A DNA stretch of 64,000 bases from a virus, in the UHGV virus genome UHGV-2202118. One strand, written 5' to 3'. How positions within the stretch are numbered: position 1 is the first letter of the stretch; every line of letters begins with the position of its first letter. The notes below the pieces were generated by a model. It made no database searches, was not told the DNA's origin, and was given only the letters and a program-made list of their open reading frames with translations. Shown here in pieces: positions 29,527-38,703 of the stretch. The translations under genes and the position numbers were made by a program.

Positions 29527-37542
<8,016 letters not shown>

Positions 37543-37543
<1 letters not shown>

Positions 37544-37782
37544 TACATTTTTCCTGCTCTTCTAAGTTCGTTGTAAGCAATTTCCTCTTTATACGACCTC
37601 TGAATTTCAAGAAATTGTCTCAATGATAATAAATCAGAGAATGTCATAGCAAAGAGTTGGTCAAGTGTTTCTTTACACCCTTCCATACCATAAATAGCAA
37701 GCACAAATTTCATCTCGTCTGCTTCTTCATAGGTTGCCTCTACAGCAGCATCAGTCAGTGGTGTCTGTAGAGTGTTACCCAT
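37543..37782 (-). CDS. tail assembly chaperone, frameshift extension ORF
   Basis: 79-aa ORF in -1 frame relative to the upstream chaperone; becomes in-frame after slippage at TTTTTTC. Confidence 0.55.
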
Positions 37783-37784
37783 GT

Positions 37785-38183
37785 TTACTGAGAAGTTAGG
37801 CTTTTGAAAATGCTTGCTTCGAAAAAACTTCCGAAGTTTGCCTCCAGCGCAAATGCTAAGTAATCAATAAATTCACCATAGTTTGCTTGGAAGTATGTAT
37901 CAATATTAAGTGGGAAGTCATCAACAGTTGCTCCTTGAAATAACAGGGTAGCCATTTCTTCAAGGTTAATTTCTTCAATTCTGTCAAAACAAGCTTCAAC
38001 AAGTTCTTTAAATGGAACCATTGGAGCTTCTTTCTTACCCTTGTCAGTCAGACTTGACAGCATCTGTGCAAAAGTTGGAACAACAATTTTACCCAACTTC
38101 ATAGACATCTTAATACCATCTCTTGCCCCAAGCAGAACGATATTTACTTTCTTACCATTAATTACTCTAGATTCTGTTTTCAT
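37785..38183 (-). CDS. tail assembly chaperone
   Basis: 132-aa ORF between tail tube and tape measure; contains slippery heptamer 13 codons before its stop. Confidence 0.6.
   Translation of the reverse strand: MKTESRVINGKKVNIVLLGARDGIKMSMKLGKIVVPTFAQMLSSLTDKGKKEAPMVPFKELVEACFDRIEEINLEEMATLLFQGATVDDFPLNIDTYFQANYGEFIDYLAFALEANFGSFFEASIFKSLTSQ
37821..37827 (-). other. programmed -1 ribosomal frameshift slippery site T_TTT_TTC
   Basis: Minus-strand codons AGT TTT TTC; the -1 frame from here is open (F F R S K H F Q K P N F S V N) and runs into the MGNTLQ ORF. Confidence 0.6.
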
Positions 38184-38256
38184 TGTGATTCCTTAATACT
38201 TTTAAAAGAAACAAAAAAGGGGAAGACCTTTTAAAGTCTCCCCCTTATAGGATTTA

Positions 38257-38703
38257 TTAAACACTTGACGCTGGAATTGTAGAAGTGTAGTCTAGCTTCT
38301 CACAACCAAAAATCCAAGTTTTAGAGTTCTGGTCACGACCAAGTTCAATCTGTGGTAATTCCTGCAACCAAGCATTAATACCAGTTGCCAGAACAGAGCC
38401 TGATGGGTCGTAGATTACGAAGTTAGAAGAGATATCTTCTTCAAGTTCCATATTGTCTTGTTTAGCTTGAATTGCAGAAAGCATCTGGTTAGAGAGAGAA
38501 GTCTGCATTAACTCAATCTCAATAGTACCTGTCTTGTCTGCATTTCTTGTCAGAGCAACTTGACCACCTGCACCAACAACTGGTGTCACAAGCGGTGATG
38601 TTCTCTGTAGACGCAAGAATGAATCTGGGGCAAAGCCTTCAATGGCAATACCATTCCAGCTACATACAACGTCTTTAGGGGAATATTGCTGATACATAGC
38701 CAT
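38257..38703 (-). CDS. tail tube protein
   Basis: 148-aa ORF directly downstream of the sheath gene. Confidence 0.6.
   Translation of the reverse strand: MAMYQQYSPKDVVCSWNGIAIEGFAPDSFLRLQRTSPLVTPVVGAGGQVALTRNADKTGTIEIELMQTSLSNQMLSAIQAKQDNMELEEDISSNFVIYDPSGSVLATGINAWLQELPQIELGRDQNSKTWIFGCEKLDYTSTIPASSV

Follow-up and report, generated by a model that had tools for sequence, protein, structure and literature searches.

In phage P2, a −1 shift at TTTTTTG, with no structure downstream, yields the two chaperones E and E+E' (Christie et al. 2002; Xu, Hendrix & Duda 2004; as cited in PMC3091744). In phage lambda, the G protein binds the tape measure and the T protein binds the tube protein (Levin, Hendrix & Casjens 1993; Xu et al. 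2013, 2014; as summarised in PMC5009743). Some T4-like phages have a two-gene solution instead, with one gene for the short chaperone and another for the long one (Vladimirov, Gautam & Davidson 2022, as summarised in PMC10885494). The classes of sequences that are prone to frameshifting in E. coli are the UUN and AAN A-site codons and the homogeneous motifs, and U_UU.C is the second-best tetramer behind A_AA.G (Sharma et al. 2014).

For the Felix O1-like phages, such a frameshift has already been annotated and published. [quoted passage not shown] The GenBank record of Salmonella phage Meda contains a joined CDS named "Tape measure chaperone frameshift product" (AXY86324.1). Our search of the literature for an experimental demonstration of the frameshift in Felix O1-like phages or Ounavirinae returned none, only statements in genome announcements.

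The DNA analysed here, which we call the window, is a 64,000-nucleotide stretch of the virus genome UHGV-2202118. The locus under study is 99% identical to Felixounavirus genomes (Andersonviridae, Ounavirinae), and the window originates from a Felixounavirus, that is, a Felix O1-like phage with a contractile tail. Profile matches and coordinates give the gene order as sheath, tube, chaperone G, the −1 ORF and tape measure (Table 1). The match of G to Phage_TAC_15 scored 71 bits against a cut-off of 22 (E = 1.7e-19) and extended over residues 9–124 of the protein and positions 1–124 of the 127 in the profile. No Pfam family matched the T ORF, and no relative of the 213-aa fusion was found among PDB sequences, where the best E-value was 0.61. 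The AlphaFold model of this fusion, calculated from a single sequence, had a mean pLDDT of 32 and was unusable. The ATG of the tape measure gene overlaps the stop codon of T (TAATG). The strong hairpin upstream of the chaperone gene (13 pairs followed by a T-run) has a counterpart at this position in phage Meda, where the annotation calls it a terminator. With it, the chaperone and tape measure genes would be transcribed less than the sheath and tube genes. The naming of G and T in the databases is inconsistent and includes "head closure protein" (C600M2, SUT_S820) and "tape-measure protein" (BPSELC-1).

Table 1. Features of the chaperone locus and its neighbours in window coordinates.
Feature	Coordinates	Strand	Evidence or remark
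Tail sheath gene, 450 aa	38719..40071	−	phrog_205 tail sheath, E 1.6e-123; Pfam DUF3383/E217_gp31_N
Tail tube gene, 148 aa	38257..38703	−	Pfam PF11681 (KPP10_Orf10 / Phage_Tube_PhiTE), E 3e-7; phrog_280
Intrinsic-terminator-like hairpin and T-run between tube and chaperone genes	38217..38246	−	13-bp stem, then TTTTTGTTT
G / TAC-N tail assembly (tape measure) chaperone, ORF1, 132 aa, zero-frame product	37785..38183	−	Pfam PF21822 Phage_TAC_15; phrog_1613, E 2.9e-48
SD-like GGAGG	37841..37845	−	14–15 nt 5' of heptamer
Slippery heptamer T_TTT_TTC (AGT TTT TTC), codons 119–121	37821..37827	−	Sequence reading and scripted translation
Invariant nucleotide island AAGTTTTTTCGA.GCAAGCATTTTCAAAA	37802..37830	−	Alignment of Ounavirinae representatives
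Second, weaker candidate slip site: U_UU.C tetramer (ATT TTC)	37806..37809	−	Sequence reading
Overlap with zero and −1 frames both open, 26 codons	37785..37863	−	Translation
−1 frame part of predicted GT, 92 aa: linker RSKHFQKPNFSVN and T domain	37543..37821	−	Translation; phrog_4963 "tail assembly chaperone", E 2.8e-55
T ORF (ORF2), 79 aa	37543..37782	−	phrog_4963; inside −1 portion of predicted GT
Whole G/GT unit; predicted GT fusion, 213 aa	37543..38183	−	Translation
Tape measure protein gene, 742 aa	35315..37543	−	Pfam TMP_3, E 2e-17; phrog_4036, E 0

Direct reading of the sequence and a scripted translation agree that ORF2 is in the −1 frame relative to ORF1. The heptamer TTTTTTC (37827–37821) is read AGT TTT TTC in the zero frame and is thus correctly phased for X_XXY_YYZ slippage. 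It begins in codon 119 of the 132 in G, which leaves about 13 codons to the stop, and both its position and its phase are as the first-pass annotation, which had proposed T_TTT_TTC as the slip site, described them. The nearest −1 frame stop 5' of the heptamer is a TGA at 37866–37864, so that the −1 frame stays open between 37863 and its stop at 37543. Because of this TGA, the zero and −1 frames are both open over only 26 codons (37863–37785), and the heptamer sits inside this overlap. The earlier suggestion that the −1 frame runs directly into the 79-aa ORF was borne out by the translation. The fusion ORF proposed at the same time, estimated at roughly 200 aa, is also present, but its length had been slightly underestimated: the predicted product has 213 residues, 121 from zero-frame codons and 92 from the −1 frame. 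The predicted junction is ...ANFGSFF|RSKHFQKPNFSVN..., which can also be written as ...ANFGSFF|RSKHFQKPNFSVNMGNT..., and the predicted tryptic peptides across it are ...ANFGSFFR followed by HFQKPNFSVNMGNTLQ....

We compared this arrangement with what would be found by chance, using as a proxy for genes the 69 ATG-initiated ORFs of at least 100 aa in the window (17,569 codons). These ORFs contain 72 in-phase X_XXY_YYZ heptamers, or about 0.1 expected per 26-codon stretch. Only one of the 72 precedes at least 40 open −1 codons. It is the TTTTTTC at 37827–37821, with 94 such codons.

In form, the predicted frameshift is an ordinary one of the G/GT type and is closest to that of P2 E/E+E'. Both phages have a contractile tail and two overlapping ORFs between the tube and tape measure genes, both shifts involve six T's (TTTTTTG in P2, TTTTTTC in the window), and neither has a downstream RNA structure. 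The two systems differ in the family of the chaperone, which is Phage_TAC_15 in the window, in the last base of the heptamer (G in P2, C here), and in the SD-like GGAGG that lies upstream of the heptamer in the window. Furthermore, the P2 shift has been shown experimentally in the work cited above, whereas that of the window is predicted from sequence. The lambda G/GT system shares with the window its position in the genome, short and long products with a common N-terminus, a −1 shift shortly before the 3' end of G and, by analogy, presumably the roles of G and T. However, lambda is a siphovirus, its heptamer is G_GGA_AAG, and its measured ratio of products is about 30:1.

Related loci were collected from IMG/VR (30) and GenBank (3), and four of the six metagenomic or chromosomal loci fetched for their more distant G homologues were added. 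The heptamer TTTTTTC and the continuity of the −1 frame are kept in 37 out of 37 related loci with the two-ORF layout, those read from Logan included, down to a protein identity of 39%. These relatives span Felixounavirus, Erwinia phiEa104-like phages (39–40% identity in G), Hafnia Zyzzx-like phages (48%) and metagenomic relatives (48–54%). In every locus with this layout the −1 frame is open for 94–110 codons. The +1 frame was also considered as a continuation and was ruled out, as it is closed within 6–33 codons in all loci. The predicted fusions can be aligned over their full length, and conservation at the protein level extends to the T part (CKET..., LR.FLE, SY.EE). In one of the distant loci, L039, a −1 frame TAG immediately precedes TTTTTT, and hence the shift there would have to take place at the heptamer or later.

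The gene order, the protein families, the phased heptamer, its conservation and the Meda record all agree with the G/GT-type arrangement upstream of the tape measure gene that the first-pass annotation had recognised. All sequence-level features of a G/GT-type −1 programmed frameshift are present, which supports that interpretation. On this reading, to which we assign a probability of about 0.85, −1 programmed ribosomal frameshifting at T_TTT_TTC would give a Felix O1-like myophage its pair of tail assembly chaperones. The occurrence of slippage, its frequency and the roles of G and GT are what we infer here. Most ribosomes would translate the 132-aa G (TAC-N) and stop at 37787–37785. A minority would slip back by one base with the tRNA-Phe pair on the UUU UUC of U_UUU_UUC, both tRNAs re-pairing on UUU UUU, and reading would continue in the −1 frame (CGA AGC AAG ...) to 37543. 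Such tandem tRNA-Phe slippage from UUU UUC to UUU UUU is the most likely mechanism, and it would yield a 213-aa GT (TAC-NC) joined at ...NFGSFF|RSKHFQKPNFSVN.... If the two forms work as in lambda G/GT and P2 E/E+E', the G part common to both would coat the product of the adjacent gene, the tape measure protein, and the rare long form would bring in the tube protein through its T extension. On the same analogy, the G:GT ratio would be fixed by translation, because it is the rare long form that carries the tube-recruiting extension.

A downstream stimulatory structure, which had been suggested as a point to check, was not found by either single-sequence or alignment folding. Neither the folds of 47–140 nt of the single sequence nor the fold of an eight-sequence alignment contained a stable structure starting 4–10 nt 3' of the heptamer, and nothing close to the heptamer exceeded the shuffled controls. 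For the first 60 nt 3' of the heptamer, the folding energy of −3.4 kcal/mol is less favourable than that of shuffled sequences (z = +1.17). The alignment fold of the eight sequences showed no covarying helix downstream of the heptamer, and its sole nearby helix, formed by the U-run and upstream purines, was rejected as an element since it has no compensatory changes. An Rfam scan of 37400–38300 gave no match at the heptamer; its two sub-threshold matches both fell on the upstream terminator. In this the window site differs from IS3/IS911 and dnaX, which have a downstream hairpin or pseudoknot. As there is no downstream stimulatory hairpin, the efficiency of frameshifting may be low.

With respect to the upstream SD-like stimulator of dnaX and IS911, the window has a candidate in the form of GGAGG, whose distance of 14–15 nt from the heptamer falls inside the interval of 6–17 nt for stimulatory SDs (Sharma et al. 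2014). The GGAGG arises from the codon choice CTG GAG. Among the relatives examined, it is kept in Felixounavirus, L035 and L039, and absent in L031–L033 and L037. L031, which is Hafnia-like, and the metagenomic L037 have TTA GAA for this Leu-Glu and no SD, and the Erwinia-like L032 and L033 are also without one. Hence, as the motif is made by codon choice and is absent where Leu-Glu is written TTA GAA, it is at most a lineage-specific enhancer, and judging from these sequences it may be a frameshift enhancer of this kind.

The nucleotides around the heptamer are also unusually well conserved. In an alignment of eight representatives, about 30% of the columns are invariant across the gene, and this value rises to 95% in a narrow peak at the heptamer (sliding 21-nt windows). 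The peak corresponds to an island of 29 nt (37830–37802), which, apart from one variable position, does not change between Ounavirinae genera whose proteins are otherwise only about 40% identical. In a megablast search with an Erwinia phiEa104-like locus, more than 200 Felixounavirus records matched just a small stretch of it, and this stretch, judged without the match coordinates, appears to be the island. It would be tempting to regard the island and the codon-choice-dependent GGAGG as a sequence-specific, non-hairpin element that tunes the G:GT ratio in Ounavirinae, and not as a by-product of overlapping peptides, but we consider this unlikely. The overlapping peptides EA.φφK (frame 0) and R.K...KP (frame −1) persist in L035, L037 and L039 despite nucleotide differences. 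The strong conservation 3' of the heptamer can be explained, at the level of these alignments, by two moderately conserved overlapping peptides.

The same 213-aa protein could in principle arise without any ribosomal slippage. If RNA polymerase added one U in the U6 run, the resulting U7 mRNA would be translated normally, and the protein product would be indistinguishable from that of a ribosomal frameshift. The site is a homopolymer run, and a scan for terminator-like elements flagged a weak hairpin at 37847–37831, three bases (AAG) 5' of the U-run, that could favour such transcriptional slippage. However, this hairpin has 6 pairs, two of which are G-U, and it is not conserved in L031–L033. 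The feature that relatives retain is TTTTTTC in its correct phase, which is what one would expect if tRNAs re-pair there. Well-documented bacterial sites of transcriptional slippage contain about 9 or more T's, and a run of six is short by comparison. The family literature and the P2 precedent also favour ribosomal slippage. We therefore regard the transcriptional route as very improbable.

A further alternative is that G and T are separate genes, the 79-aa T being made from the ATG at 37782 by termination-reinitiation after the G stop, with the heptamer being incidental. The window ATG does lie 2 nt past the TAA (CAG TAA AC ATG), and many GenBank records annotate two CDSs. On the other hand, there is no SD before this ATG (cctaacttctcagtaaacATG), and relatives do without it. 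The start codon of the T ORF has changed from ATG to ATA in L007, in which the T protein is still conserved, and L031–L033, L037 and L039 have no in-frame T start codon until the middle of the T domain, again with a conserved T protein. In L037 and L039, the gene callers left the T region empty because it has no in-frame start codon. In all these loci the heptamer and the continuity of the −1 frame are kept. Furthermore, the −1 linker 5' of the ATG (RSKHFQKP.F) is conserved as a protein and has a counterpart in an unshifted 201-aa gene of a Buttiauxella prophage. Independent translation of T is a possible side route in the window's phage. As the ATG can be lost in relatives, this route cannot be the mechanism that has been conserved, and we give the separate-gene explanation only a slim chance of being the right one.

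The Buttiauxella locus (L034:4001-4986, a chromosomal prophage of Buttiauxella noackiae, JPRU01000001.1) is the one relative with two genes in place of a frameshift and as such is a natural control. It has TCA TTC TTC and no heptamer. After its 126-aa G gene comes a second, separate gene of 201 aa, which starts with an ATG that overlaps the stop codon of G. The product of the 201-aa gene is G-like (E = 7e-10 against the neighbouring 126-aa G) and is collinear with the predicted fusion of the window across the junction, residues 81–208 aligning with 64–194 (E = 5e-13). This alignment across the junction indicates that a contiguous G-linker-T protein is the functional long form in the chaperone family. 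As read from these sequences, gene duplication has replaced the frameshift in this prophage. This pairing of a G gene with an adjacent G-like+T gene is like the two-gene solution of the T4-like phages, insofar as that is described in the summary cited above; the window's phage differs from it in keeping the frameshift.

Finally, a −1 shift at the U_UU.C tetramer (ATT TTC, 37809–37806), which would give the junction ...FFEASIF|QKPNF..., is the least probable of all these readings: the tetramer lies inside the overlap and the invariant island, and U_UU.C is proven to be shifty with a stimulator present, but tetramers alone are barely shifty and this one, unlike the heptamer, is not conserved in L035, L037 and L039, nor is it kept outside Ounavirinae.

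Returning to ribosomal slippage at T_TTT_TTC, a Meda fusion that we built by slipping at TTTTTTC is identical to AXY86324.1, residue for residue. The window has the same locus, site and product as the Andersonviridae/Ounavirinae records (Meda, Moogle, Mijalis and Adele), and nothing substantive differs. Hence, as AXY86324.1 is the exact fusion and the Moogle, Mijalis and Adele papers describe the frameshift, the case is ordinary and already known. It adds another clean and deeply conserved G/GT example in a contractile-tailed lineage and opens no new question. Its value is in annotation, as many Felixounavirus records list the 79-aa ORF separately, under "hypothetical", "tail assembly chaperone" or "head closure". 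This ORF is most likely only the C-terminal extension of the 213-aa frameshift product.

Some database records of this family carry odd host labels. A G protein of the identical family is deposited under Staphylococcus hyicus (WP_252560994.1) and also occurs in E. coli assemblies, and "Listeria phage LPML1" is 96.9% identical to a Hafnia phage locus. These labels are likely the result of contamination or mislabelling.
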